Virus genome (UHGV): UHGV-0170246
From: a virus
Reading direction: 5' to 3' (one strand)
Length of the DNA: 45,982 nt
Shown: positions 1-45,982 of the stretch, piece by piece
Numbering within the stretch: the stretch's first letter is position 1
Layout: the number at the start of each line of letters is the position of its first letter
Position numbers and translations under genes: made by a program
Notes under the pieces: model-generated
What the model saw: the letters and a program-made list of their open reading frames with translations, nothing else
Told to the model about the DNA's origin: nothing
Database searches by the model: none

Positions 1-38
1 TGGTTTTTCTGTAATGCGCCAGAAGCCTTGTTTATCGT

Positions 39-64
39 TTCCTGCAAACCGAGGTTTTTGCGAA
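39..64. other. gix/cix-like crossover site for a serine DNA invertase (TTCCTGCAAACCGAGGTTTTTGCGAA)
   Basis: Read from sequence; about 22/26 identical to the Mu gix site as I recall it; sits ~65 bp upstream of the invertase gene; nt 1-55 are the exact reverse complement of nt 45928-45982. Confidence 0.7.
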
Positions 65-128
65 TTGCCTCTGTGTCGTCTGAACGATATTTTTTCCCGC
101 TTTTAGCAACAATCGTGGTTTAGAAAGT

Positions 129-683
129 ATGCAATATGGTTATGCGAGGGTGTCAACTTTTGACCAGAATTTGGAATTACAACTGGAGGCGCTCAGGAGT
201 TCAGGATGTGACCGGATTTTTGAAGATAAAATATCCGGTGCTAAATCAAAACGACCAGGACTTGATAAGCTACTGAAGGTGTTACGACCGGGCGATACGG
301 TTATTGTCTGGAAGCTGGACCGAATGGGGCGTTCTCTGATTCATCTTGTTGATTTACTTAACCATTTTTTATCAAACGACATTGAGTTTATTTCGATTAC
401 GGAAGGGATAAAAATTAGCACTTCAATTGGCCGCTTTGCCTACACGATGCTGAGTGCAGTCGCAGAGATGGAGCGGGAAAATATGATTGAAAGAACGCGT
501 GCAGGATTGGCGGTGGCAAGGGCTAACGGCAGGATAGGAGGACGCCGCTCAAAGCTGGCACCAGAGCAATGGGAACAGATCGGAAGGCTTATTGCGAATG
601 GTGTTTCACGTAAGCGGATAGCGATTATCTTCGATGTTACCTTATCCACGCTTTACCGCAGGTTTCCGGCTGGGAATCATTGA
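129..683 (+). CDS. Serine recombinase, DNA invertase of the Gin/Cin/Pin/Hin family
   Basis: 184 aa; N-terminal YARVST..Q motif with catalytic Ser, GRIGGR and C-terminal HTH; close to phage Mu Gin from recalled sequence. Confidence 0.9.
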   Translation: MQYGYARVSTFDQNLELQLEALRSSGCDRIFEDKISGAKSKRPGLDKLLKVLRPGDTVIVWKLDRMGRSLIHLVDLLNHFLSNDIEFISITEGIKISTSIGRFAYTMLSAVAEMERENMIERTRAGLAVARANGRIGGRRSKLAPEQWEQIGRLIANGVSRKRIAIIFDVTLSTLYRRFPAGNH

Positions 684-834: not shown

Positions 835-870
835 TGTGGGTGTCTGGTTGAAAAGTGACCAGATATGGAA

Positions 871-953
871 ACAAAAAGCCCGCAGATAAATCTGCGGGCT
901 TCTTGCGACATCCACGGAAAGGAAAACCAACAACTAACCATGGGCGCCTCGAC
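871..953 (-). ncRNA. Candidate CopA-like antisense RNA of the repA leader
   Basis: Minus-strand promoter (rc of 983-988 gives TTGCGT -35, 16-nt spacer, rc of 961-966 gives a perfect TATAAT -10) followed by a 9-bp GC-rich hairpin (877-900) and a U-run on the minus strand; geometry matches IncFII copA/copT, but coordinates are inferred. Confidence 0.4.
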
Positions 954-998
954 TACTCCCATTATACGTTGGTTTTCCGTGGACGCAAGAGCGAACAT

Positions 999-1847
999 AT
1001 GGATAGACCAATGCCGTCTCTACGTTCAGCTTACGTTTGTAATTTGTCGCCGGAGTTCCAGCCTCCAAAGCACCATACGCACAAGCTGCCGCTGGTGTTA
1101 TCTGATGCTTTACAGCGCATTAATGGTCGTGATCTTACGTGTGAGGTTGCGTTCTACGTTAATCAACCGTCAGAGCGGAAACGCCGGATAAACGAGCATC
1201 GTCGTCGGGCGATTAATGCTGTGATTGCTGCGATTTTGCACCATGTAAACATCATTTCTAAGCGGGTTCTGGCCAGTGCTGAGGCGTTGGCTGATTTTTG
1301 CGGCCTGTCTACCGTATCCGAAGCTGGGAACAAGTCTATAACGCGCTGTACAAGGGCGTTGTCGCAACTGAAAGAGTTAGGTTTTATTGATTATGAACGT
1401 CGCTGGGATCGGGTGAATAAACAGTATTGGCCAGCGAAAATCGAGATTCGTGATCAACTGCTGGAAACAGTTGGTATTACTGAACAAGCATGGAGACGTG
1501 CGGTTAGCCAGAAACTTAATTACTTCAATGCGAAGAATAGCGAACGGCTTAAAAAAGCGATAACGGAGGCTGATTATAAGCGTATTGTTATTCAGGAGCA
1601 GATGGAGAATGTATGGCGTCAGAGGAAGACGGCCAGAGAGATAAAGGCAAAACAGAAAGCAGCGGAGAGAGCTGCGCGTCTTGTTCAGGAAAAGGGAGAG
1701 GCCGAACTTCGTCATCAAATCACTAGAGAGGTTAGCCAGGAATTTGCTGATGGCATGTATCCTGGTGCTGACCTTGCATATTTACGCTCCCTCGTTGAGC
1801 AGCGTTATAACAGGCTAAGAAAGACCTGGAAATCACTCCAACATTAA
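999..1847 (+). CDS. repA: Plasmid replication initiator, IncFII RepA1-like
   Basis: In-frame ATG inside ORF 855-1847 gives 282 aa, close to RepA1 length; motif GLSTVSEAGNKSITRCTRALSQLKELGFIDY resembles the R100 RepA1 region as recalled. The GTG at 855 is probably an ORF-finder extension. Confidence 0.7.
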   Translation: MDRPMPSLRSAYVCNLSPEFQPPKHHTHKLPLVLSDALQRINGRDLTCEVAFYVNQPSERKRRINEHRRRAINAVIAAILHHVNIISKRVLASAEALADFCGLSTVSEAGNKSITRCTRALSQLKELGFIDYERRWDRVNKQYWPAKIEIRDQLLETVGITEQAWRRAVSQKLNYFNAKNSERLKKAITEADYKRIVIQEQMENVWRQRKTAREIKAKQKAAERAARLVQEKGEAELRHQITREVSQEFADGMYPGADLAYLRSLVEQRYNRLRKTWKSLQH

Positions 1848-3303: not shown

Positions 3304-3657
3304 TTGAGCATGTGGACGGTACTTTTTAGCCAGCGATTTGACGACTGGCTAAATGAGCAAGAAGACGCTCTTCAGGAAAAGGTTTTGGCTGATTTGAAAA
3401 AGCTACAGGTTTACGGACCTGAGTTACCCAGGCCATATGCCGATACCGTAAAAGGTTCTCGGTACAAAAATATGAAAGAGCTTCGCGTTCAGTTTTCTGG
3501 CCGTCCGATAAGAGCCTTTTATGCGTTCGATCCGATTCGCCGGGCCATCGTTCTTTGTGCAGGAGACAAAAGTAACGATAAACGGTTTTATGAAAAACTG
3601 GTGCGTATAGCTGAGGATGAGTTTGCAGCACATCTGAACACACTGGAGAGCAAGTAA
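3304..3657 (+). CDS. RelE/ParE-superfamily toxin, HigB-like (phage Gp49-like)
   Basis: 117 aa; toxin precedes an HTH antitoxin with TAATGA stop/start overlap at 3655-3660; family assignment from recalled pattern. Confidence 0.6.
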   Translation: MSMWTVLFSQRFDDWLNEQEDALQEKVLADLKKLQVYGPELPRPYADTVKGSRYKNMKELRVQFSGRPIRAFYAFDPIRRAIVLCAGDKSNDKRFYEKLVRIAEDEFAAHLNTLESK

Positions 3658-3956
3658 TGAGAACATTAGATGAGGTGATTGCCAGCCGTTCACCTGAAAG
3701 CCAGGCGCGAATTAAAGAAATGGCAGATGAGATGATTCTTGAGGTCGGCTTGCAGATGATGCGTGAAGAACTCCAGTTATCACAAAAACAGGTTGCTGAG
3801 GCGATGGGTATAAGCCAGCCAGCAGTAACAAAGCTGGAGCAGCGCGGAAATGATTTAAAGCTGGCGACATTAAAGCGTTACGTTGAAGCTATGGGAGGCA
3901 AATTAAGCCTGGATGTTGAGCTTCCCACAGGAAAACGAATAGCGTTTAACATCTGA
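3657..3956 (+). CDS. HTH XRE-family antitoxin, HigA-like
   Basis: 99 aa; HTH segment LSQKQVAEAMGISQPAVTKLE; translationally coupled to the upstream toxin. Confidence 0.6.
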   Translation: MRTLDEVIASRSPESQARIKEMADEMILEVGLQMMREELQLSQKQVAEAMGISQPAVTKLEQRGNDLKLATLKRYVEAMGGKLSLDVELPTGKRIAFNI

Positions 3957-3971
3957 TCAGAACGAATGATA

Positions 3972-3997
3972 AGCCCCTGTTGCAAAGGGGCTTTTTT
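3972..3997 (+). terminator. Rho-independent terminator
   Basis: 7-bp stem AGCCCCT/AGGGGCT with a 7-nt loop followed by TTTTTT. Confidence 0.65.
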
Positions 3998-4003
3998 GTG
4001 CTC

Positions 4004-4119
4004 ATAGAATTATATAATTATATATTTATATAAAAAATGCTTTACAGGTGGGAAAAAATTTCCTAAGGTTATAACCGAAACCGAGCGATACCCGCCCTGG
4101 TTAAACCGGAGATAACCCG
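4004..4119 (+). repeat. Conserved promoter/leader cassette, copy A (AT-rich repeat, TTTACA -35 at 4041-4046, ~70-nt leader, GGAG RBS)
   Basis: Near-identical to 13072-13190 and 20695-20812; ends at the ATG of the downstream gene. Confidence 0.7.
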
Positions 4120-4500
4120 ATGAGCATGATTAAAATCCGCAAAAATGCTTTCCTTAAAATTCAAACTATCCTGGCTGGTTCTGTTGGCGTGATTTGCCGT
4201 TCTTCTTCAAGCCGCATCGATGACGGCTACGATGATGAGTACCGTGTGTCCTCGTGCGATGAGGCTTTAACCTGGCTGAAGGAGAATCAGGAACGTGCCC
4301 AGGTATATCTGGAAACAGAGAACGGCAATCAGATGCTGCGTATTAGCGGTCGTTATGGATTTGAAACTACATTCATGGCCTATTTTAATCAGGCTTACTT
4401 TGACAAGGAGCTGGCCTGGTACACTGATCGCATGAGCAAAAGCGAGCCAGCCCCGATTACACCGCCGAACAATAAACCATTTTTATTCCTCGTTAAGTAA
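4120..4500 (+). CDS. Hypothetical protein, first gene after cassette A
   Basis: 126-aa ORF with GGAG RBS inside the conserved leader. Confidence 0.5.
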   Translation: MSMIKIRKNAFLKIQTILAGSVGVICRSSSSRIDDGYDDEYRVSSCDEALTWLKENQERAQVYLETENGNQMLRISGRYGFETTFMAYFNQAYFDKELAWYTDRMSKSEPAPITPPNNKPFLFLVK

Positions 4501-4506
4501 ACACAA

Positions 4507-4533
4507 TGCGCAAAGTGTCATTTTGACACTTTG
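4507..4533. promoter_or_regulatory. Perfect 27-bp palindrome CGCAAAGTGTCA-TTT-TGACACTTTGCG
   Basis: Read directly; upstream of the HTH gene at 4564; a partial copy (AAAGTGTCATTTTGA) is at 13021-13035. Confidence 0.45.
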
Positions 4534-4563
4534 CGAGTGTTAATATTGTGCGAGGAGGATGCT

Positions 4564-4836
4564 ATGACGGGTTATGAATTGAAATTATGGCGTCGTGGGA
4601 TGAACTGGACGCAGGAGCGAGCCGCCGAAGAATTTGGGATATCGTTGGCTACATATAAGCGATATGAGAAGGGGGAGCCGCCGAGGGTCATTGAGATGGC
4701 CATTCGCGTTCTGTCGTTTGACGATATGGTTAAGGATCTTTCACACCTTGATAAAGATGCGATTCTGTTAAGGCTGCAAACCCTTGTATGGGAAAAGGTT
4801 AAAGTGTCGTCAGAATTGGAACAAGGGATCAAATGA
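4564..4836 (+). CDS. HTH XRE-family transcriptional regulator
   Basis: Internal ATG of ORF 4531-4836 preceded by GAGGAGG; HTH segment WTQERAAEEFGISLATYKRYE. Confidence 0.5.
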   Translation: MTGYELKLWRRGMNWTQERAAEEFGISLATYKRYEKGEPPRVIEMAIRVLSFDDMVKDLSHLDKDAILLRLQTLVWEKVKVSSELEQGIK

Positions 4837-4910: not shown

Positions 4911-5607
4911 AGTCTGAAATTTAAATCTTGCTTGGTAGGCTGGATTTAAAAAGACACCTCTTGATTGGGGCGGCTTTCTTGCGTCTAAAGATAATCAAAT
5001 CTTTTTGCGCCTGCAACCCCTTTTTTACTGGTGCCTGTTTCAGACTCACGCTCGCGTCGTTGTCTTTGCCACTTCGTTGGGTTCGGTGTTTTTGGGCGGA
5101 GTGGCGCGCGGGTATGCGTACAAGGGGAAAGTGTGCTGACGCAAGCTAGGAACAGCGATCTAAACTAAGTCGAGTCTGAGAAAGGCAGGAGTGCGACAAC
5201 TCGCCTGTGCTCAATGAGCAGAAGAAGGTATATCAGACGACCAATGGCATGATTGTGGGCCACAGGGCGCACACGGCGGCGAAGCATTGGAAACGATGTG
5301 GAGCTATCTGGTGGCATGAGTTCCGGTACTCGATCTCGAGCTTTTTTTGATGCTTTTGAGAAGGGGCCGGAACTCCGGTAAAGGGCACCCTGTATGGGGG
5401 GAGGGGGGGTTGTGTCTGAAGGGTGGCTATCGGTTATGGTGGAATTATGATGCGTAGAAAAGCGAGTTTGCTGCAAGCTATTGGGTCCATTATTTCTTTG
5501 TTTCCGGCAGTTGATCATTTTCGTCATATGGCGACACGTTCGAGTATGGGCTTGGCGCGTGACGCTGACGCTATTCGAAAGGATTTTCAGAAAGTCTCTG
5601 GTGTTGA

Positions 5608-5641
5608 TAAGAGAGAAAAGAGTAAGGGGCCGTAGCCCCTT
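5608..5641 (-). terminator. Rho-independent terminator for the antirepressor gene
   Basis: Hairpin AGGGGC-cgta-GCCCCT just downstream of the stop at 5646; minus strand has a U-rich run after the hairpin. Confidence 0.5.
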
Positions 5642-5645
5642 GTAG

Positions 5646-6791
5646 TTATGGTCTGCTTTTCTGTGCCAGCTTATCAGCACATGTTTTTATCAGATCCTGT
5701 AGTGTCCTGGCTGGCAGGTTTGCATCCAGTACGCTGAGTATGCTGTTGTGTTCTGCTTGGTCGACTACTTTGCCTGTCGGTGGTAGTAGCTTGAGCTGAG
5801 GATTCAGGTTTTCGTCAAAGCTGATAAGTGCTCTGGCGTTTCTGAGCAGATCAAGAAGTAAGGCTGATATCACATTTTCCTGAGTCATTGCTGGCAGACT
5901 TAGCGCCGCTTTGGTTTTCCCTGTTGCCTTGTCAAACTCCTTGATTAGTTCCTTCCTGTAGTTCGGTTCCGTTAATAGCCGATTATGCTCTGTTGCCGCG
6001 CGGATAATCGTTTTTTCCTGGTATAGTCGTTTAGCCAGATCACGCTCGTACTGTGTTTTTAACACGCTGCTGATAGCGTTAAAGGCTTCAATGTAGGCCA
6101 GCTTGATATCTTTCACGCTTGGACCGTCGATGCTCTCCATGAGCAAGGTAAATCCGTCTTTTGTCATGCGATAGATTGTTATTTCGCGGTCGCTTCCTTC
6201 CAGCGGTCGTTGCTCTTTAAAGAAGTGACGCGCCGCAGCTGTGCGAGGAATGCGTAACGCATCGATGGCCATAACGATGGAATTGTTTGTGGTGCTGAAT
6301 GCCTGGGCAACATCGGCTGAGGTTGTGAGTGGCTCGTTGTTGCACACCTTAATGTAATACATTGGTTTAGCGTTGAGCGTATCGACAACCTCACGAGCAT
6401 TGTTTGGTGAGACGGTTACGGTCGCGGCCGTTTGCGCGTTCTGGTTGAAGTAGCAGTCTTCCAGCCGTTCGAATACATCCCACGCCTGATCGGTTTCGAG
6501 CATTTTAGCGTGACGTGCAGCCCCGCGTTCTGTCCAGAGGATGAGGGAGCGGACTTTAGGTGAAACTGGATTTTGAGAGTAGTTTAAAGCTACCCGCAAT
6601 TCTTTAAGGTCATTACCAACAACTTTGAAAAAGTGTTTCCCTTCAACGAAACGTGCTTTGTTCTCATGATGATTCTGGCGAATACGCACCGGCTCAGTGC
6701 CGTAAAGCTGTGCTAGTAACTCGGTAGTAATGACAGGGATTTGGTTATGCAGGATAGGCTGTAGGGTGTTAACGGTCGGAAGCGTTTTCAT
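5646..6791 (-). CDS. Antirepressor-like protein (ORF6N-type N-terminus, Rha-like central region)
   Basis: 381 aa; N-terminal pattern PVITTELLAQLYGTEPVRIRQNHHENKARFVEGKHFFK and internal TTSADVAQAF segment typical of phage Ant/Rha-type regulators (recalled domain patterns). Confidence 0.55.
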   Translation of the reverse strand: MKTLPTVNTLQPILHNQIPVITTELLAQLYGTEPVRIRQNHHENKARFVEGKHFFKVVGNDLKELRVALNYSQNPVSPKVRSLILWTERGAARHAKMLETDQAWDVFERLEDCYFNQNAQTAATVTVSPNNAREVVDTLNAKPMYYIKVCNNEPLTTSADVAQAFSTTNNSIVMAIDALRIPRTAAARHFFKEQRPLEGSDREITIYRMTKDGFTLLMESIDGPSVKDIKLAYIEAFNAISSVLKTQYERDLAKRLYQEKTIIRAATEHNRLLTEPNYRKELIKEFDKATGKTKAALSLPAMTQENVISALLLDLLRNARALISFDENLNPQLKLLPPTGKVVDQAEHNSILSVLDANLPARTLQDLIKTCADKLAQKSRP

Positions 6792-6979
6792 TTTGCACCT
6801 CCCATAACTACTTTGGTTACGAGGGAGATTTTTGCGTCAGAAACAGCGTTATCGTTGCTGGCGATGCGCATAGCTTCGCGCTCGATGATTTCAGCCAGGC
6901 GGAATTTATCGGCGTATGAGGCTTTCTTGAGAAGGATCTTTACGAGGTTGACGTAATAGTCATGGGGTAAGTTTGTCAT
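6788..6979 (-). CDS. Small hypothetical protein, first gene of the antirepressor operon
   Basis: 63-aa ORF; its stop overlaps the antirepressor start (ATGA). Confidence 0.35.
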   Translation of the reverse strand: MTNLPHDYYVNLVKILLKKASYADKFRLAEIIEREAMRIASNDNAVSDAKISLVTKVVMGGAK

Positions 6980-7394
6980 GGTGATAGTTCCCTTAAAGGT
7001 TAAGGATACTCACCACCGTCTGGTTCCAATCATTGGGTGGTGAGACGTACAGGGTTGGAACTACCGGTCACCATGGAATCCGGCGAGTCTTACGACTCCC
7101 CCGCACGCCCCACCATAATTTGGGTGTAGCAGTGCTTTACGCATAAAAAAACCGCTAACGCGGTATGCGCCATGATGATTATCGGGGTTCCAATCCCGAC
7201 CGTAGATTTTGCTACGGCTCGGAAAGTGTCCACCAATGGCGCATTTATGTCAATACAGAGGGATTTTAACAGAGACAACCACATAGCGTGGGTTTATTGG
7301 TAGGCAGAAACAAAAAAACCGCCCTATTGAGGACGGTTCTTTCGTGCTGATCGGATTCGCGGTCCTTTCAGCATAACGTCGTTGTACTAATACA

Positions 7395-7414
7395 ACCACG
7401 CAAGCACAAACAGC
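7395..7414. repeat. Direct repeat copy 1 (ACCACGCAAGCACAAACAGC)
   Basis: 19/20 identical to 7645-7664, about 250 bp downstream, in an ORF-poor region. Confidence 0.6.
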
Positions 7415-7644
7415 AACTACATTCTTACCCAACTGAGGTGAATAGTCCACTATTCATATAAAAAAATTTAGCTCATTAGCTCATGCAAAATGAAGGTTTT
7501 TAACTTATTTACGTGTAATCTCATGTAATAAAAGCGTTTTTTATTCCTTCATTATGAAGGGTATGACGTGTAATATGGCTTGGGGCCTTTCCGCCGATTC
7601 GCACCCGGGCACTGACTTTCAGGAAAGGATTATCCACTTGCCGT

Positions 7645-7664
7645 ACCACGCAGGCACAAACAGC
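7645..7664. repeat. Direct repeat copy 2 (ACCACGCAGGCACAAACAGC)
   Basis: See copy 1. Confidence 0.6.
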
Positions 7665-7728
7665 GTGCTTGCTCTCGCGTCATTTTCGTCGGTGGGGATG
7701 CCGTGAAACGGCCTGTAAGGGCCACACA

Positions 7729-7851
7729 ATGAAAAAATACTACATGTGTATTTTTATCGTTGTTACTGGAGCTTTGTTTACGCCACATGGGGAGGGTTGG
7801 AAGATTACTGATAACGCTCTGAATGTGACGATAAACATTAGCAGCAAGTAG
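7729..7851 (+). CDS. Possible small hydrophobic peptide (40 aa)
   Basis: In-frame ATG of ORF 7669-7851; one predicted transmembrane stretch (YYMCIFIVVTGALF); followed at once by a strong terminator; no recognisable family. Confidence 0.2.
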   Translation: MKKYYMCIFIVVTGALFTPHGEGWKITDNALNVTINISSK

Positions 7852-7856
7852 CGATT

Positions 7857-7880
7857 AGGCCCCTTCGGGGGCCTTTTTTA
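7857..7880 (+). terminator. Rho-independent terminator
   Basis: 7-bp stem AGGCCCC/GGGGCCT with TTCG tetraloop followed by TTTTTT. Confidence 0.75.
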
Positions 7881-8028
7881 CTGCAACCTGCATTTGATAG
7901 CTGTTTACCATTGCAGTAGCTTATATACCGTAAGAGCCACAAGATGTGGTTACGATTTCAATACGGGGTTGATATGAAAAAGCGGTATGACGAATTTGAT
8001 GGTTTCTAAGAGACGTTGACCTCTAATG

Positions 8029-8055
8029 AGGCGGGTTGGTTGCCCGCCTTTTTTA
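8029..8055 (+). terminator. Rho-independent terminator
   Basis: Stem GGCGGG/CCCGCC with a 7-nt loop followed by TTTTTT; second plus-strand terminator ~170 bp after the first. Confidence 0.7.
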
Positions 8056-8064
8056 TGGCTACAT

Positions 8065-8247
8065 TTAAACGCTGGAACGCATTAAACCTTTCAGAACTGC
8101 TTCACGTACCCATTCTGGCCTGGTTGATAGCAAGGCAAATAAACGCCCAGCTTTGAGTCGCTTGAGGTCTATTAGACGAGTTTTTAGTAACCGTGTATAT
8201 TGTTGTTCGGACATAACAAATTCCCCTTGTTGTGTCGCGACGGCCAA
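8065..8247 (-). CDS. Hypothetical small protein, distal gene of the partition operon
   Basis: 60-aa ORF directly downstream of the parG-like gene on the same strand. Confidence 0.3.
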   Translation of the reverse strand: MAVATQQGEFVMSEQQYTRLLKTRLIDLKRLKAGRLFALLSTRPEWVREAVLKGLMRSSV

Positions 8248-8276
8248 CAGTTGGCGCTGGAGGCCGTCACCTTCTC

Positions 8277-8525
8277 TTACTTCTGGTTGTATTGAGCCTT
8301 GAGTAACTCAAAAGATTTTGTCAGCACTTCTTTCAATGACATATCCATTGAACTGGCGAACGTTTTGTACTCGCGTTTAAATTCAGGGTCGACGTTAAAC
8401 GCCATTTGTGCCCCACCTGATTTGGTTCTGGTTGGCGTTTCAGTCGGGTCGAAAACCTGCGGTTGTTCGATCGATGGCGGTACGCCTTTGCTGTTCTTCT
8501 TTGGTGGTTTTGATGGTGCGGCCAT
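8277..8525 (-). CDS. ParG-like ribbon-helix-helix centromere-binding protein
   Basis: 82 aa, immediately downstream of parA; unstructured basic N-terminal tail and C-terminal RHH-like segment (FNVDPEFKREYKTFASSMDMSLKEVL). Confidence 0.6.
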   Translation of the reverse strand: MAAPSKPPKKNSKGVPPSIEQPQVFDPTETPTRTKSGGAQMAFNVDPEFKREYKTFASSMDMSLKEVLTKSFELLKAQYNQK

Positions 8526-8537
8526 GTGTATCCCCTC

Positions 8538-8570
8538 TTATATAAATCTATAAAACTATAATTATATATT
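8538..8570. repeat. AT-rich motif locus (TATAAATCTATAAAACTATAATTATATATT) downstream of parG
   Basis: Member of the dispersed TATAATTATATA(AAT) motif family. Confidence 0.55.
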
Positions 8571-9237
8571 ACGCGGCAGTAGTCAGAGCCTCAAGCTGGT
8601 TGATAATCCCCTGAATAACGTCGTCTGCCTTTTTGCGTGGCGCAACGTATGAGCATTCAATGAGGCTTAAGCCCTTATCCTGAGCTTTGCTCAGAGCTGG
8701 CTTGTGGGGAATGTACTTATCGACAACAAAGTATGGCGTATTAGCCAGGTACTCTTGGGCTTCAATATAGTCAGCTTCATTTTCAGCCGCGCCGGAAAAC
8801 ACCATGCAAATTTTCTTGATTGGCACACCCTTTTTAACGATGCCGTGAGCAGTGTTAACGGTGGTTTCCAGGTCATCGGTAGAGAATCGGGTTGGCAAAA
8901 TAACCATATCCAGAAATTCAGATAGCTTCGGTACTGATTCAGATGCGTAGGCACCGCCATCAACGATAACCAGGTCGTATACTTCTGATTCGATGATTTT
9001 CTGGACTTGTGATGGTGTGCCGCACGGCTGCGCCGCGATTGCTGGTTCGATATTGTTGGCCATTCTGCGTTGTACCCAACGCGTTACCGTTCCGTTAAGC
9101 ACATCCATATCGATCAGGCATACATTCCAGCCAGCCTTTGCATAAGCAACTGCTAAAGCACGGGCAATTGTTGATTTGGTTACGCCGCCTTTTCCGTTGA
9201 AAATACCTACAGAGATAGTCATTTGTCGAGACTCCAT
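8569..9237 (-). CDS. parA: ParA-family partition ATPase (small type Ib ParA/ParF-like)
   Basis: 222 aa; deviant Walker A GKGGVTKST near the N-terminus; followed by a small RHH protein gene. Confidence 0.8.
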   Translation of the reverse strand: MESRQMTISVGIFNGKGGVTKSTIARALAVAYAKAGWNVCLIDMDVLNGTVTRWVQRRMANNIEPAIAAQPCGTPSQVQKIIESEVYDLVIVDGGAYASESVPKLSEFLDMVILPTRFSTDDLETTVNTAHGIVKKGVPIKKICMVFSGAAENEADYIEAQEYLANTPYFVVDKYIPHKPALSKAQDKGLSLIECSYVAPRKKADDVIQGIINQLEALTTAA

Positions 9238-9246
9238 GTGTTTGGT

Positions 9247-9350
9247 TATATAATTCTATAAATCTATATTTATAGAACGAGGTAAGCATAACCAACTTTT
9301 TGGCGGATGGAAAGTGTTTTATATAATTATATAAATCTATAATCATATAA
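9247..9350. repeat. Two AT-rich motif blocks upstream of parA (candidate par promoter/centromere)
   Basis: TATATAATTCTATAAATCTATATTTATAGA and TTATATAATTATATAAATCTATAATCATATAA read directly. Confidence 0.55.
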
Positions 9351-13071: not shown

Positions 13072-13190
13072 AAATCTATAAATATATAATTATAGATTTA
13101 TATAAAAAGTGCTTTACAGGTGGGAAAAAATTTCCTAAGGTTATACCCGAAACCGAGCGATACCCGCCCTGGTTAAACCGGAGAAATCTG
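13072..13190 (+). repeat. Conserved promoter/leader cassette, copy B (TTTACA at 13113-13118)
   Basis: Near-identical to cassettes A and C; ends at ATG 13191. Confidence 0.7.
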
Positions 13191-19559: not shown

Positions 19560-19594
19560 TATATATTTCTATAATTATATAAATATATAGTTAC
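19558..19594. repeat. AT-rich motif locus (ATATATTTCTATAATTATATAAATATATAG)
   Basis: Contains the CTATAATTATATAAAT core shared with the par-flanking repeats. Confidence 0.5.
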
Positions 19595-19728
19595 AACATT
19601 CTATGCGCTTTTCTCATGGGCGCACGCATCAACCATGTTTGTCTGATATGCCGCCGCGCCCAAAAATCCTGAATTTATTGGCTGGGATTTTCGTGCGCGG
19701 CGCCACACCAGACAAACAAATCAAATAT

Positions 19729-20111: not shown

Positions 20112-20699
20112 ATGGAGGCAATTGCATTGTTTAATCTGATTTATGCAGATCCCCCCTGGGAATACAAAGACAAGTGTAAGGATGGGAATCGTGGAGCTGG
20201 TTTTAAGTATCCAACGATGAAAGCTGAGGAGATTGCTCGTATTCCTGTCTGGCAGCTTGCTAATCCTGAATCGTGTTTGTTGGCCATGTGGTGGGTTCCG
20301 ACTCAGCCAGAAGAAGCGTTGCTGGTGGTTAAAGCATGGGGATTCAGGCTGATGACCATGAAGGGCTTCACATGGAACAAATGTGGTAGCCGACAACCAG
20401 ATAAGCTGGTGATGGGGATGGGGCATATGACTCGTGCAAACAGTGAAGATTGCTTGTTTGCGGTAAAAGGCAAACTGCCGACCCGTCTTGATGCGGGGAT
20501 CATTCAGTCGTTTACATCGCCTCGTCTGGAGCATTCTCGGAAGCCTGATGTGGTCCGTGACAAGCTGGTAAAGCTGTTAGGTGATGTTCCTCGTATTGAG
20601 CTGTTTGCTCGCGGTGATTTACCTGATGGCTGGCATGGCTGGGGCAACCAGTGCAATGGAGGTATCCAGTTGCATGATGCTCTCTGGCAAGTGGCATAG
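20112..20699 (+). CDS. MT-A70 family N6-adenine DNA methyltransferase
   Basis: 195 aa; DPPW catalytic motif (YADPPWEY) near the N-terminus. Confidence 0.8.
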   Translation: MEAIALFNLIYADPPWEYKDKCKDGNRGAGFKYPTMKAEEIARIPVWQLANPESCLLAMWWVPTQPEEALLVVKAWGFRLMTMKGFTWNKCGSRQPDKLVMGMGHMTRANSEDCLFAVKGKLPTRLDAGIIQSFTSPRLEHSRKPDVVRDKLVKLLGDVPRIELFARGDLPDGWHGWGNQCNGGIQLHDALWQVA

Positions 20700-20812
20700 A
20701 ATTATATAATTATAGATTTATATAAAAAGTGCTTTACAGGTGGGAAAAAAATTTCCTAAGGTTATACCCGAAACCGAGCGATACCCGCCCTGGTTAAACC
20801 GGAGATAACCCG
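20695..20812 (+). repeat. Conserved promoter/leader cassette, copy C (TTTACA at 20733-20738)
   Basis: Near-identical to cassettes A and B; ends at ATG 20813. Confidence 0.7.
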
Positions 20813-22861: not shown

Positions 22862-23533
22862 ATGACAAAACATCTTAATGTGGTTTCTTTACCACTTTCT
22901 GTGTTGATTGGTTATGAAAAGAACGCTCGCACACACTCCGTGGAGCAGGTAGATCAGATTGTTGCCAGCATACAGGAGTACGGATGGACTAATCCGATCC
23001 TGATAGACGAGAACAACGTTGTAATTGCTGGTCATGGTCGAATTGTTGCGGCCACTCAGTTGGGGATGGATGACGTTCCCTGCATTGTTCTGGAAGGGCT
23101 AACGGAGAATCAGAAGAAGGCATATCGTCTGGCCGACAACCGTATTCCGCTGAATGCTGGTTGGGATGAAGAGTTGTTAAGCGCGGAACTTGCAGATCTT
23201 GCGGCCGATGATTTTGCTCTGGACTCAATTGGTTTTACTCAGCGCGAACTGGATAACTTATTGAGTGCGGCGGTCTACGATGACACAGAGGGTATGGATA
23301 TCCCATTTGAGAAGGATGAGGCCAAATCAGGCGTAAAAGTTCAGTACCTGTCATTTGGAGGTCATAAAATCCCAGCAACGGATGGGAAGCGGATCGTTTT
23401 GACTGCGCGGTATCTCGTTATGTTGATGATAATGGCAGCTATATCGGATTTGTATCCGCATTGCTGGCTGGGGAGGTGTGCTGATGCTTCATCTCAATTA
23501 CGACATAACGCACCTACGCGGCGCGGAATATAA
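22862..23533 (+). CDS. ParB-like nuclease domain protein (paralogue 1)
   Basis: 223 aa; ParB/Srx motif AGHGR; about 55% identical by eye to the protein at 26151-26741 over the N-terminal ~130 aa. Confidence 0.7.
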   Translation: MTKHLNVVSLPLSVLIGYEKNARTHSVEQVDQIVASIQEYGWTNPILIDENNVVIAGHGRIVAATQLGMDDVPCIVLEGLTENQKKAYRLADNRIPLNAGWDEELLSAELADLAADDFALDSIGFTQRELDNLLSAAVYDDTEGMDIPFEKDEAKSGVKVQYLSFGGHKIPATDGKRIVLTARYLVMLMIMAAISDLYPHCWLGRCADASSQLRHNAPTRRGI

Positions 23534-24857
23534 CCCGCGTTTTATCGGTGAGGATGATCTTGCGAGGCTGGCGGAAAGCGTCAGGGAGCTGGGGCTTGTG
23601 AAGCCATTGATAGTGCGCGGCGATTTGCTGGTGGCGGGACACCAAAGGACGAAGGCGCTACGTAAGTTGGGAATAACGCGTGCTGCGGTGTATGTGTTGC
23701 CCTGTGAAACGACGGTATACGACGAAGTACGGTTTAACCAACTGCATAACGGAACGGATTTTGACAGCGGAGATGAGCGTTGCAGGGTGTCAGGTCTGGA
23801 AGATAAGCATGGTTTTGTTCAGGTATCGGCAAGCCAGATCTCAGGCAATATGCGCGCGAAAATGGCATATGTTCGAAAGAACATAGCGGAACTGGTTATC
23901 AAGTATGGGCCGTGGGGTGGTTGTGTTGCTACTCAGTCTGGTGAGGTTATTCACTGTGCTCAGTATGCATTAGCAGCGAAGATGACGCGCACACCGCTAA
24001 CGGTGTTTGTGATCCCTGATGTTGAGAAGGAAAAATACCAAAGTTATCTGAATAAAACTTATGGTGTATTTGAGTATTCTCACCTGGAGAAAACAACATA
24101 CATCCAGACGTATGCGCAGCTTATGCGGTTGCGTAATGGTGGCAGCCTGAAATCAAACCTGTATGAGTCGTTGATCCTCCCGATCATTGCCAAGACGCCA
24201 AGAGGAATTGATTTTGGTTCGGGGCAGGGAGACTACGCGCGAATGCTCAGGGCAAAGGGATATAACCTGCATGATCTAGAGCTTTTCCGCCGTAAGGGCG
24301 CTGGAAACACTCTGGATAGGACTGCAACAAACCGGATGATTGATACGCTGGTGGACGACTTAAAAACGCGAGGGCGTTACGACTACGTGATTTGCGATAG
24401 CGTTTTGAACTCGGTCGATAGTGTCGAGGCTGAATGGTCCGTTCTAACGGTTCTGAAAGGCCTGTGTAAAGCTGGTGGGTCAATATTCTTTTCTGGTCGT
24501 AGCCGTGGAGAGCTGGAAACAGTCCTGAAGCAAACACAAGCGGCGAGTTCCAAAAGCCGGCTTTATTTTATTGATCATAACGGTTTTACCGCGTTGTACC
24601 GGAAGGGGCACTGGTTTTACCAGAAGTTTCACTCTGATGATGAAGTGAAGCAGTTGTGTCGTGTACATGGTTTCAGGATTAAGCGGTCAATATTCAACTG
24701 TAAGAGCTGGTATTTGCACGTCATTAACGATGATTCCCTTAGTTGGGCGAGTCTGGAGAAAGCTGTTCGTTTTGAGTTTGAGTTGCCGTTGCCTGGTGGT
24801 TCAACAATCGGACGATCTGATGATGTGCTGGCGGCTTTCCGGCCGTTGATTAAGTAG
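23484..24857 (+). CDS. ParB-like N-terminal domain fused to a class I SAM-dependent methyltransferase-like domain
   Basis: GGGAGG RBS before ATG 23484; N-terminus LLVAGHQRTKALRKLG is ParB-like; C-terminal region has motif I IDFGSGQG, acidic post-I, hhhhD (YDYVICD) and GG motif; no DPPY-type motif seen. Confidence 0.55.
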   Translation: MLHLNYDITHLRGAEYNPRFIGEDDLARLAESVRELGLVKPLIVRGDLLVAGHQRTKALRKLGITRAAVYVLPCETTVYDEVRFNQLHNGTDFDSGDERCRVSGLEDKHGFVQVSASQISGNMRAKMAYVRKNIAELVIKYGPWGGCVATQSGEVIHCAQYALAAKMTRTPLTVFVIPDVEKEKYQSYLNKTYGVFEYSHLEKTTYIQTYAQLMRLRNGGSLKSNLYESLILPIIAKTPRGIDFGSGQGDYARMLRAKGYNLHDLELFRRKGAGNTLDRTATNRMIDTLVDDLKTRGRYDYVICDSVLNSVDSVEAEWSVLTVLKGLCKAGGSIFFSGRSRGELETVLKQTQAASSKSRLYFIDHNGFTALYRKGHWFYQKFHSDDEVKQLCRVHGFRIKRSIFNCKSWYLHVINDDSLSWASLEKAVRFEFELPLPGGSTIGRSDDVLAAFRPLIK

Positions 24858-32446: not shown

Positions 32447-33490
32447 ATGCCGAATATTGATATTTTTGAACGACGTACAATGCTTGAGCCTGTTATTCAG
32501 AATTTCAAGGCTCGTCGTTTTCTTCTTCGTACCTTTTTCCCTGGTGTTCAGACCTTTAATACAAAGAAAGTTGATCTGGATTTTGTTCGCGGTGGCCGTA
32601 CTATGGCTCCGTTTGTTGGTAAAGGTTTTGGCTCAAAAACCGTTGAGCGACGCGGCTTTGTAACGAGAACTCTGGAGCCACCACTTGTTGCACCTGATTT
32701 GGTAACAACAGCCGAGCTGCTTTTAAACAGGCTTCCGGGTGAGAATATTTACAACGCAAAATCGCCAGCAGAACGAGCCGCCGAGCAATTAGGTAAAGAT
32801 TTGCTTGAGCTTGATGAAATGGTTAACCGCCGTGAAGAATGGATGTGTGCACAGGTCTTGTTTACGGGACAGGTTGATATTGTTGGTGAAGGAGTAGATG
32901 ACACAGTTTATTTTTGGCCTGAAGAGGAAGGTGATAAACCATACCTTGAACTGACAGGTGATGATTTATGGAGTGCCGCAAAATCAGATCCGTTGGTCAA
33001 TATCCGCAACTGGAAGCGCCGGGTATCACTAACATCAGGTTTTACACCTCGTACTGCTGTAATGGGTGCAAAAGTTGTTGATGCATTCGTTAAAAATGAA
33101 GCAGTAACTAAATATCTTGATAATCGTCGAAAAGAGTTTGGGTATATTAAGCCAGAGGACTTAGAAGAAGGAGTTACTCATTATGGTAATATTGAGGGGC
33201 TCGATTTTTATGGTTACGACGAACTTATTCTTAGTGATAAAACAGGAAAACCAGAACCATTAGTGCCGGAGGATAAGATTCTCCTTGGCTCTCCGGGGCG
33301 GGGAACTATGTTGTATGGTGCTGTAGAGCTTGTAGATGAAGCTGAAAAGACTCTGACGATTGTTGAGTCACCACGAGTTCCAGATACTTGGGTATCTCGT
33401 AAGCCGGGAGGTCGTTATGTTGCCATGAAGTCGTCTCCACTGCCTAATCCTGGCGTGGCTGACGCCTATCTGGTGGCTAAGGTGGTTTAA
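32447..33490 (+). CDS. Major capsid protein (lambda gpE family)
   Basis: 347 aa; N-terminal pattern resembles lambda gpE (recalled); position after the decoration gene. Confidence 0.8.
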   Translation: MPNIDIFERRTMLEPVIQNFKARRFLLRTFFPGVQTFNTKKVDLDFVRGGRTMAPFVGKGFGSKTVERRGFVTRTLEPPLVAPDLVTTAELLLNRLPGENIYNAKSPAERAAEQLGKDLLELDEMVNRREEWMCAQVLFTGQVDIVGEGVDDTVYFWPEEEGDKPYLELTGDDLWSAAKSDPLVNIRNWKRRVSLTSGFTPRTAVMGAKVVDAFVKNEAVTKYLDNRRKEFGYIKPEDLEEGVTHYGNIEGLDFYGYDELILSDKTGKPEPLVPEDKILLGSPGRGTMLYGAVELVDEAEKTLTIVESPRVPDTWVSRKPGGRYVAMKSSPLPNPGVADAYLVAKVV

Positions 33491-33883
33491 ATGGCCAGAC
33501 TGGTTAAAAACATCGATACGATAAGCCACGGCTCGCTAAAAGCGGGCCGTTTGCTTAATGGGCTAATGGATAACTCCAGAATTGCCGAACTGATTGCGTC
33601 AGGACATGCTATTGCCACCGAAGAGGATGGTGATTTGGCATCGGCTGGGGGCTATGATGCTGCTAAGTTAGCTTTTGAGCACGGATACGCATCTGCTGTT
33701 AATGATGCTGTGGACGCGGGGTTGATTACGCGAACGGAGGCGGGTAGCTGTGTATTCGAGGTTGAGTTTGAGGATGATGGCGGCAATGAGGAAATGGTTG
33801 CTGATGATTCATCTGAATCTGTAGCTACTTCTGATACCAGTAATGCGAAAAAATCAACGCAAAAAAAAGGTAATAAGAAGTAA
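33491..33883 (+). CDS. Hypothetical acidic head-associated protein (lambda FI position)
   Basis: 130 aa; by size and position only. Confidence 0.3.
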   Translation: MARLVKNIDTISHGSLKAGRLLNGLMDNSRIAELIASGHAIATEEDGDLASAGGYDAAKLAFEHGYASAVNDAVDAGLITRTEAGSCVFEVEFEDDGGNEEMVADDSSESVATSDTSNAKKSTQKKGNKK

Positions 33884-44570: not shown

Positions 44571-45982
44571 GTGAGTAAATTATTATTTACGATGACTGAC
44601 GCCGGGCGTCAGGAGCTGGTTAATGCCAACAAAACAGGAACAAATAAAGTTGAGATTGTTTCTGTTGGTTTAGGTAGTAGATATTATGTCACGTCAACTT
44701 CACAAACAAATATAACAAACGAAATAAAACGACTTACCACAATAGGTGGCAAAGTTGTTTCCCCTGATACAATTCATGTAACAGCGAAGGATGATAGTAA
44801 AGATGAGTATGTTGTCCATACAATAGGATTGTATACGAATAAGGGTACGTTGTTTGCTGTATACTCACAAGAACAAGCAATAATAAATAAAGCATCATCT
44901 ACTATCGCTTTAATATCAAGTGATATAGCAATTAAAACTCTTGATACTAAAAATATTACATTTGGTGATATTGAGTTTATTAATCCTCCCGCGACCGAAA
45001 CTGTTGTTGGGGTGGCAAGATTTGCTAATGAACAAGAAATTGATGCAGGTACAGATGATTCCCTTGCTGTTTCAGCAAAACGGCTTAAGCAAGCCATTGT
45101 GAAACATGAGCAATCACGTAATCATCCTGATGCAACTTTAACCTCAAAAGGCTTTGTTCAACTTAGCAGCGCCACCAATAGCGCGTCTGAAACGCTTGCT
45201 GCGACGCCTAAGGCTGTTAAGGCAGCATATGACCTGGCTAATGCTAAATACACCGCACAGGACGCTACCACAGCGCGAAAAGGGATTGTTCAGCTCAGTA
45301 GTGCCACCAACAGCACGTCTGAAACGCTGGCAGCAACACCAAAGGCTGTTAAGGCAGCGTATGATCTTGCGGCCGGAAAGGCTCCGTCCAATCACACGCA
45401 TTCGTGGGAGCAGATAACAAATGTGCCTGTAGCTTCACTGACTGTAAGGGGAATAACTCAGCTCAGTAGTGCCACCAACAGCACGTCTGAAACACTGGCC
45501 GCGACATCGAAAGCTGTAAAGGTGGTAATGGATGAAACGAACAAGAAAGCGCCCCTGAACAGTCCGGCGCTGACCGGAACACCAACAACACCAACTGCGC
45601 CAAAAGGTACTAACAATACTCAGATCGCAAGCACGGCTTATGTTATGGCTGCGATTGCCGCCCTTGTAGATTCGTCACCTGACGCACTGAATACGCTGAA
45701 CGAGTTAGCGGCGGCGCTGGGAAACGACCCGAATTTTGCGACCACCATGACTAACGCGCTTGCGGGTAAGCAACCGAAAGATGCCACCCTGACGGCGCTG
45801 GCCGGGCTTGCTACTGCGGCAGACAGGTTTCCGTATTTTACGGGGAATGATGTCGCCAGCCTGGCAACTCTGACAAAAGTCGGGCGGGATATTCTTGCGA
45901 AATCGACCGTTGCCGCCGTTATCGAATACCTCGGTTTGCAGGAAACGATAAACAAGGCTTCTGGCGCATTACAGAAAAACCA
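44571..45982 (+). CDS. Tail fibre protein (P2 gpH / Mu S-like constant part), 3'-truncated by the window edge
   Basis: GTG start; open frame to the window end, absent from the ORF track because there is no stop; three tandem fibre repeats; reading frame runs through the gix-like site at 45919-45944. Confidence 0.8.
   Translation, partial: MSKLLFTMTDAGRQELVNANKTGTNKVEIVSVGLGSRYYVTSTSQTNITNEIKRLTTIGGKVVSPDTIHVTAKDDSKDEYVVHTIGLYTNKGTLFAVYSQEQAIINKASSTIALISSDIAIKTLDTKNITFGDIEFINPPATETVVGVARFANEQEIDAGTDDSLAVSAKRLKQAIVKHEQSRNHPDATLTSKGFVQLSSATNSASETLAATPKAVKAAYDLANAKYTAQDATTARKGIVQLSSATNSTSETLAATPKAVKAAYDLAAGKAPSNHTHSWEQITNVPVASLTVRGITQLSSATNSTSETLAATSKAVKVVMDETNKKAPLNSPALTGTPTTPTAPKGTNNTQIASTAYVMAAIAALVDSSPDALNTLNELAAALGNDPNFATTMTNALAGKQPKDATLTALAGLATAADRFPYFTGNDVASLATLTKVGRDILAKSTVAAVIEYLGLQETINKASGALQKN
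45150..45535 (+). repeat. Three tandem ~90-bp coding repeats inside the tail fibre gene (GxVQLSSATNSxSETLAATPKAVKAAYDLA)
   Basis: Read directly at ~45150-45242, 45280-45372 and 45446-45535. Confidence 0.8.
45919..45944. other. gix/cix-like crossover site (TTATCGAATACCTCGGTTTGCAGGAA), inverted partner of 39-64
   Basis: About 23/26 identical to the Mu gix site as recalled; lies inside the tail fibre reading frame. Confidence 0.7.

Follow-up and report, generated by a model that had tools for sequence, protein, structure and literature searches.

Inverted repeats at the ends of a phage-plasmid contig probably flank a missing Gin/Cin-type invertible tail-fibre cassette

The window, by which is meant the whole stretch of 45,982 nucleotides recorded as UHGV virus genome UHGV-0170246, is in all probability (roughly 0.9) the contig of a circular plasmid prophage of ~49 kb from which a ~3-kb invertible fibre cassette, resembling the G and C segments and bounded by inverted 26-bp sites, has been left out. 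The terminal repeat, the paired sites and the genes beside them are observed in the window, and the corresponding architecture, together with a real inversion, is observed in relatives. The mechanism is the classic host-range switch of Mu and P1 in another temperate element; it is a well-known mechanism and introduces no new principle. The features at the two ends are as follows.

1-55, minus strand: left repeat arm, exact reverse complement of the right arm, truncated at the contig end
39-64, plus strand: invertase-proximal 26-bp crossover site (equivalent of gixR), TTCCTGCAAACCGAGGTTTTTGCGAA, with two 12-bp half-sites and the core GA at 51-52
129-683, plus strand: serine DNA invertase of the Gin/Cin/Pin/Hin type, 184 aa, with Pfam Resolvase and HTH_7 domains
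44571-45982, plus strand: constant N-terminal part of the tail fibre (Sc-like), open over 470 codons up to the contig end
45919-45944, minus strand: fibre-proximal 26-bp crossover site (equivalent of gixL), TTCCTGCAAACCGAGGTATTCGATAA (read from 45944 to 45919), inside the fibre ORF
45928-45982, plus strand: right repeat arm, start of the currently expressed variable part of the fibre, truncated at the contig end

A first-pass annotation, made from the letters of the window and its open reading frames, had described the two ends as exact inverted repeats, and direct comparison confirmed this: read as the reverse complement, 45928-45982 equals nucleotides 1-55 without exception, position 56 (T versus A) being the first mismatch, and a repeat search of the window extended the match to 58 nt at 98% identity. 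Because both contig ends cut the repeat, its true length is at least 55 nt, which is a lower bound rather than a length. The Gin/Cin/Hin-like sites that had been proposed at 39-64 and 45919-45944 were recovered by pattern search and by homology to phage D108. The left site divides as TTCCTGCAAACC-GA-GGTTTTTGCGAA and the right site, on the reverse complement, as TTCCTGCAAACC-GA-GGTATTCGATAA; the half facing the contig end is common to both and the halves facing the interior differ, as had been noted at first pass, and the central GA is also common to both. The two sites lie in inverted orientation, with the identical GA core on opposite strands. A 20-nt site pattern allowing up to 3 mismatches was matched in the window at these two places only, against an expectation of 0.01, and none of 100 shuffles gave two matches. 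Nucleotides 1-58 are also 91-95% identical to the G-segment boundary of the Mu-like phages D108, SfMu, PhiR68_1 and vB_YpM_5/6; the identity to D108 is 93%, the matching stretch being annotated there as 'related to inverted repeat in Mu', and the D108 site, TTCCTGTAAACCGAGGTTTTAGATAA, is homologous to the window sites.

The positions of the neighbouring genes likewise agree with what had been reported from the sequence, with a Gin-like invertase gene near the left end, its ORF starting 65 nt past the site, and a tail-fibre gene that reads through the right-hand site and stays open to the last base. The fibre ORF crosses that site as ...IEYLGLQETINKASGALQKN, and the core dinucleotide (45931-45932) supplies the second and third bases of a leucine codon. 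On the minus strand, the left arm corresponds to the first 55 nt of a silent alternative variable part of the fibre (Sv'-like) and codes for (L)GLQETINKASGALQKN. The fibre part present in the window is matched by Pfam Phage_fiber_2 in three stretches (1.3e-58), and the gene runs on in relatives to 725-817 aa. Within the constant part, three tandem-like 93-nt copies occupy 45146-45538, the later two being 83% and 66% identical to the first; these are the three Phage_fiber_2 repeats (KGxVQLSSATNSxSETLAATPKAVKAAYDLA).

What lies between the two ends can be read from relatives of the window. A stretch of 2.9-3.1 kb joins them in each of the three Yersinia phages, in the four plasmids examined from E. 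coli (C311 p2, pP136-7 and ATCC 25922 being among these) and in nine of ten contigs that encode the identical invertase protein, with CP098182 as the exception. On its plus strand this segment carries the remainder of the fibre and a Caudo_TAP chaperone, and on its minus strand a second chaperone and a promoter-less, silent fibre C-terminus; past the segment follow the invertase and then repA, an order that matches the D108 annotation S-U-U'-S'-IR-gin. The earlier proposal of a short invertible fibre segment just outside the window is therefore supported by the relatives, and the alternative fibre C-termini and the chaperones in opposite orientations, suggested at first pass as a check, were found in every relative examined. 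The 6.6-kb gap in CP098182 was considered as a possible multi-site (Min/shufflon-like) system and this was rejected, as the gap represents a Tn5403 insertion in the silent fibre copy; the Tn5403-family transposon (resolvase and transposase) occupies 5077-8674 of NZ_CP098182.1, within the invertible segment, which it enlarges to 6.6 kb.

The window's own cassette was sought with an exact 55-mer in viral contigs and with an exact 40-mer in metagenome contigs, with 0 matches in each. Megablast of nucleotides 1-128 against complete E. coli genomes and plasmids returned full-length matches of at best 97.7%, the identical arm being absent; the 55-mer was likewise absent from all ten contigs encoding the identical invertase, and the phage, plasmid and E. 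coli collections held no record identical to the window. The content of the window's own cassette and the true length of its repeat are accordingly given here as extrapolations from the relatives.

Inversion at these sites occurs in the family, and this is established for the family rather than for the window molecule itself. CP009073 and CP158444 are independent assemblies of the 48,488-bp ATCC 25922 plasmid, and over 11.2 kb they differ solely by a block of 3,048 bp that is exactly reverse-complemented. The core ACCTCGGTTT/AAACCGAGGT, 10 nt at the centre of the 26-bp sites, is the narrowest interval to which its breakpoints can be assigned. Two arm polymorphisms move with the segment, and it is the inversion with these travelling polymorphisms that accounts for records derived from ATCC 25922 falling into two identity classes. 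The fibre is intact in both states, at 795 and 816 aa; the two versions have the first 494 residues in common and are ~28% identical past the site. Many pairs of segments from other isolates match only when one is inverted, for example the contigs L011 and L018 over 2,972 of 3,051 nt. A further record of the plasmid (NZ_CP032086.1, ATCC 25922) is 94,204 bp long and has three matching places, and it is possibly a dimer or a mis-joined assembly.

The Yersinia phages vB_YpM_41 and vB_YpM_44 were also considered as flip states of one segment; this was rejected, their segments being 88% identical in the same orientation versus 65% when flipped. The two phages do differ by an inner inversion of ~1.2 kb that covers both chaperone genes (vB_YpM_41, OR545054, ~3516-4720; vB_YpM_44, OR545055, ~3514-4717) and is flanked by a 216-nt, 95% identical inverted repeat formed by the fibre 3' ends and the chaperone 5' ends. 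Such a rearrangement, which reflects either homologous recombination or mis-assembly, would pair each fibre C-terminus with the other chaperone.

The replicon to which the window belongs is a phage-plasmid, i.e. a circular plasmid prophage of ~49 kb. Two of its plasmid maintenance genes are the following.

855-1847, plus strand: IncFII-type RepA replication initiator (Pfam IncFII_repA, 5.5e-44), with repA annotated in relatives
8569-9237: ParA, plasmid partition

Past RepA lie genes for ParA, a ParB-like protein and a HigB/HigA-like pair. The virion genes encode terminase GpA, a lambda-type portal, a ClpP-type protease, capsid E, the tape measure and baseplate proteins J, I, V and D, with a head of lambda type and a tail of P2/Mu type. 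Replication and partition genes thus stand beside a full set of virion genes, and the 23 ORFs scanned contain no integrase domain, a combination that defines phage-plasmids. Relatives at ~98% identity include three circular Yersinia phage genomes of 49.0-49.1 kb (vB_YpM_39, 41 and 44) as well as circular plasmids of ~46-52 kb in E. coli and E. fergusonii, among them the ATCC 25922 plasmid. A literature search under the names vB_YpM_39 or ATCC 25922 phage-plasmid returned nothing specific on this family. The window makes up ~94% of the circle, and its 45,982 nt plus ~3 kb give the family size of 48.1-49.1 kb. The first-pass annotation had favoured a circular or permuted genome of which the window is the large arc: RepA, ParA and the relatives bear out the circle and the large arc, and a single contig can be such an arc because the element is a phage-plasmid, whereas the terms 'permuted' and 'lysogen' used there are better replaced by circular plasmid prophage.

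On the plus strand of the whole window, G outnumbers C (11,666 versus 8,880), and most of the longer ORFs lie on that strand. Accessory genes occur at 3304-3956, 5646-6791, 20112-20699 and 23478-24857, their products being a Gp49/HigB-like toxin with an HTH antitoxin, an ORF6N/Rha-type antirepressor-like protein (not an integrase), an MT-A70 methyltransferase and a second protein with a methyltransferase domain.

It is proposed that the fibre gene (44571 onward) supplies the constant N-terminal part and reads over the right-hand site into the cassette, which would present, in the expressed orientation, one of two alternative C-terminal receptor-binding parts together with its chaperone. Dimers of the invertase would bind both sites and assemble into a synaptic tetramer, probably with host Fis bound to an enhancer in the 5' end of the invertase gene itself, and cleavage at the central GA followed by a 180-degree rotation of subunits would flip the cassette. 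By homology, these steps are those of the Gin/Hin pathway, in which the Fis-bound enhancer helps the synaptic tetramer to assemble, the central dinucleotide is cleaved and subunits rotate by 180 degrees (PMC3798978). The flip would fuse the other C-terminus in frame, and progeny virions with a different host range would be expected. The outcome is fixed as an inversion because both sites hold the identical non-palindromic GA core, and both orientations are in frame because the crossover falls in the leucine codon of the shared peptide ...YLGLQET...; the two variable parts begin with one common peptide, which is why the repeat arms run past the sites into the cassette. A de Bruijn assembler working on short reads would be unable to choose a path through this repeat, especially with both orientations in the sample, so that the large-arc contig would end on the shared k-mer at both sides and display an exact terminal inverted repeat of length k.

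The exact length of 55 nt appears to be a matter of assembly. Repeat arms in the family come in several sequence types, and exact repeat lengths of 10, 25, 27, 37 and 73 nt were found; arms of unlike type match exactly over just 10-27 nt. A circular model genome was put together from the window and the inner part of the C311 segment, and was represented as a SPAdes-style graph with k-mers as vertices and (k+1)-mers as edges. A first simulation, begun from mid-window, stopped at an internal 60-nt repeat, and the simulation was rerun from near the ends. At k=55 the outgoing edges end exactly at positions 1 and 45982, and this holds for input of a single orientation as well as of both. With k=21 and k=33 the left edge ends inside the window, at 35 and 23, respectively, and the right edge ends at the internal repeats of the fibre gene, at 45478 and 45490; at k of 77 or more, edges stop only with both orientations present, and then at the true end of the repeat. 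The value 55 is a default k of SPAdes and metaSPAdes. The most likely explanation, which we infer from these graphs, is that a true repeat of at least 55 nt was cut at k=55, its observed length and terminal position having been set by the assembler and not by biology. The concern raised at first pass that the repeat might be a contig-end artefact is thereby divided: the repeat is real, and it is its 55-nt length and terminal place that were most probably set in assembly.

The same biology could also produce a true exact repeat of 55 nt, if a population of mixed orientation had been assembled at k of 77 or more and the contig ends ran to the point at which the cassette sequences diverge. The behaviour of the mixed-orientation graph at such k and the variation of exact repeat lengths across the family both accord with this alternative, which carries some weight but is unlikely: in four of four relatives in which both arms are of the window's type (C311 p2, L012, L020 and L021) the repeat is 73 nt and exact, without any difference through positions 56-73, and the agreement with a standard k value would have to be accidental. 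Length by itself does not explain why the assembly broke, because the assembler did cross a 60-nt exact direct repeat (13125-13184 and 20746-20805) that also breaks the k=55 graph; with that repeat traversed, the break at the ends calls for a further cause, either mixed orientation or weak read-pair support. This hints that conflicting read-pair evidence from mixed orientations may have stopped the assembler there. The same break is seen in another assembly, where the terminal base of contig L021 (JANALK010000030.1) is precisely the first one shared by the repeat arms.

Two further readings of the ends would dispense with a cassette that is merely missing from the assembly. A linear phage genome that is complete and bears true inverted terminal repeats of 55 bp, of the protein-primed or telomere phage type, would place an exact repeat at the very termini, as is seen here, and CheckV accepts such contigs as closed, its rule counting an inverted terminal repeat of at least 20 bp; only 33% of contigs with such repeats are of high quality by the same source (PMC8116208). 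This reading is hardly credible for the window, in which the fibre ORF lacks a stop codon and is not followed by a chaperone gene, all close relatives being circular with ~3 kb more between these very ends, and neither a protein-primed polymerase nor a protelomerase having been seen among the 23 ORFs scanned. The other reading, that the cassette was deleted in the window genome or that one arm was wrongly copied from the other in a fold-back mis-assembly, would accord with the failure to find a contig that combines the cassette with the exact arm variant among viral and metagenome contigs. It is nevertheless very improbable. Recombination between inverted sites inverts and does not delete, and a deletion would leave one site and a direct, not inverted, terminal overlap; joining the present ends would create a perfect palindrome of 110 bp and a fibre gene without a C-terminus. 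In relatives, moreover, homologous arms occur at both junctions and match each of the two arms separately.

With the fibre cassette of a circular phage-plasmid left out at assembly as the preferred reading, contig ends that mirror each other exactly over one k-mer length are a signature of an unresolved invertible segment and not of a complete linear genome. A rule of the CheckV type would call the window closed, though it is without the receptor-binding end of the fibre and both chaperones, and any host-range prediction from the window would be blind because that end is missing. The problem may be common: the identical 184-aa invertase is indexed in 820 blocks of a public collection, and the longest contigs bearing it gather in two size classes, 2-5 kb (320 blocks) and 20-50 kb (311 blocks), a clustering which suggests that many assemblies may be interrupted in the same way, at the terminal repeat as well as at the dispersed repeat near 4.0-4.1 kb.

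The invertase itself has the features of its family. Its Pfam matches are Resolvase at 3.6e-44 and HTH_7 at 2.9e-13, and its alignment to 3UJ3 and 4M6F, both structures of Mu Gin, needs no gaps and has E=1e-61, as compared with 1e-30 for gamma-delta resolvase, the bit score against the Gin structures being twice that against resolvases. The catalytic residues Arg7, Ser9, Asp64, Arg65 and Arg68 are kept; the active-site serine is Ser9 in Gin and Ser10 in Hin. The invertase-specific residues that contact Fis in Hin are Gln151, Arg154 and Leu155 (PMC3798978), and their counterparts Gln150, Arg153 and Leu154 are kept as in Gin and Cin. Two intervals of the gene may bear on its coupling to Fis.

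147-214, plus strand: candidate Fis-dependent recombinational enhancer, nt 19-86 of the invertase ORF, the same interval as the annotated enhancer of P7 cin
264-266, plus strand: codon of helix-B Asp46, at the position of Hin Lys47

In the candidate enhancer, Fis-like 15-bp cores are centred at ~158 and ~206 (+29 and +77 of the ORF), with a spacing of 48 bp and at a distance of ~106 bp from the centre of the site, and D108 gin and P7 cin have G-N13-C cores at conserved positions. The Fis-like motif is degenerate, with 26 occurrences per kb in the window, and the same DNA also codes for conserved residues; a generic scan for the motif is too unspecific alone and becomes informative only once anchored to the annotated P7 enhancer. 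The interval 147-214 is consistent with a Fis enhancer, but this does not amount to proof.

For helix B of Hin, residue 47 has been described as 'always lysine', contacting enhancer DNA and invariant in 15 invertases, with lysine or arginine at 48 and 51 (PMC3798978). With Hin numbering taken as window numbering plus 1, an offset derived from the catalytic serine and not from a full-length alignment of Hin, the corresponding patch of the window invertase is Asp46, Lys47 and Lys50, i.e. two of the three positions are basic and aspartate stands where lysine is the rule. Aspartate occupies this position in the whole clade (YpM_39, ATCC 25922, C311 and SJ46 pin), and lysine in Gin, Cin, Cartapus and mEp237. 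Lysine at Hin position 47 is not indispensable here, because the aspartate-bearing ATCC 25922 plasmid inverts. That the aspartate marks a re-wired or relaxed coupling to Fis and the enhancer, with a different switching rate or partial independence of the enhancer, in a widespread E. coli phage-plasmid family, and, separately, that the window's own cassette could hold something other than the usual set of two fibres, is a speculative suggestion that we regard as rather improbable.

By the features tested, the window system belongs to the Gin/Cin/Pin/Hin family of invertible segments, with a layout like that of Mu and a lifestyle like that of P1. With the G segment of Mu and D108 it shares the type of 26-bp site with a GA core, the fibre frame in which the site lies (GLQET...), an invertase gene pointing away from the segment and an invertase that aligns to Gin over its full length, and, going by the cassettes of relatives, also the gene order Sc-Sv, U, U', Sv', repeat and a segment of ~3 kb. 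It differs in that Mu and D108 are transposable phages, whereas the window represents a RepA/ParA plasmid prophage with a lambda-type head; D108 Gin is only 54% identical to the window invertase, which has aspartate in place of the helix-B lysine, and the repeat arms are at least 55 nt (73 nt in relatives) as against 34-36 nt annotated in Mu and D108. The P1 C segment has 0.6-kb repeats. P1, P7 and D6, with their C segment and Cin, are also plasmid prophages that switch fibre C-termini by inversion, and P7 has its enhancer in the 5' end of cin, annotated at nt 19-86; in P7, unlike the window, cin points towards the segment and cixL overlaps the 3' end of cin. The genomes of these phages are twice as large and otherwise unrelated, and Cin is 56% identical. 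In D6-like plasmids the tail-fibre inversion region has been described as the most variable one (PMC6799933), and tail fibres have already been documented as a frequent target of inversion (PMC9881135).

The closest named invertase is 'pin' of SJ46 (NC_031129), a P1-like Salmonella phage-plasmid, with 88% amino acid and 89.7% nucleotide identity and the same aspartate at the position of Hin Lys47. The SJ46 genome is P1-like and 103 kb in size, and the invertase module alone is common to it and the window (31-637 of the window versus 33078-33684), which suggests that a module of invertase and site may have been exchanged between unrelated phage-plasmid families. Salmonella Hin/hix has a recombinase of the same subfamily, the same layout of the 26-bp site and a Fis enhancer ~100 bp from one site (PMC3798978), but it is chromosomal and flips a promoter and not a coding cassette.

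The 60-nt direct repeat mentioned above is part of a dispersed cassette of ~108 nt that occurs at 4005-4112, 13077-13184 and 20697-20804, directly upstream of three plus-strand gene blocks, with ORFs that begin at 4120, 13191 and 20813. Its parts are an AT-rich palindromic stretch (ATAGAATTATATAATTATAGATTTATATAA), a promoter-like TTTACA...TAAGGT and a near-identical 5' leader ending in GGAGA-N-ATG. The AT-rich part alone, inverted and shorter, is found at 8525-8570 and 9320-9350, near parA, and at 19560-19608. The dispersed cassette looks like a shared repressor operator and promoter, comparable to the dispersed C1 operators of P1.
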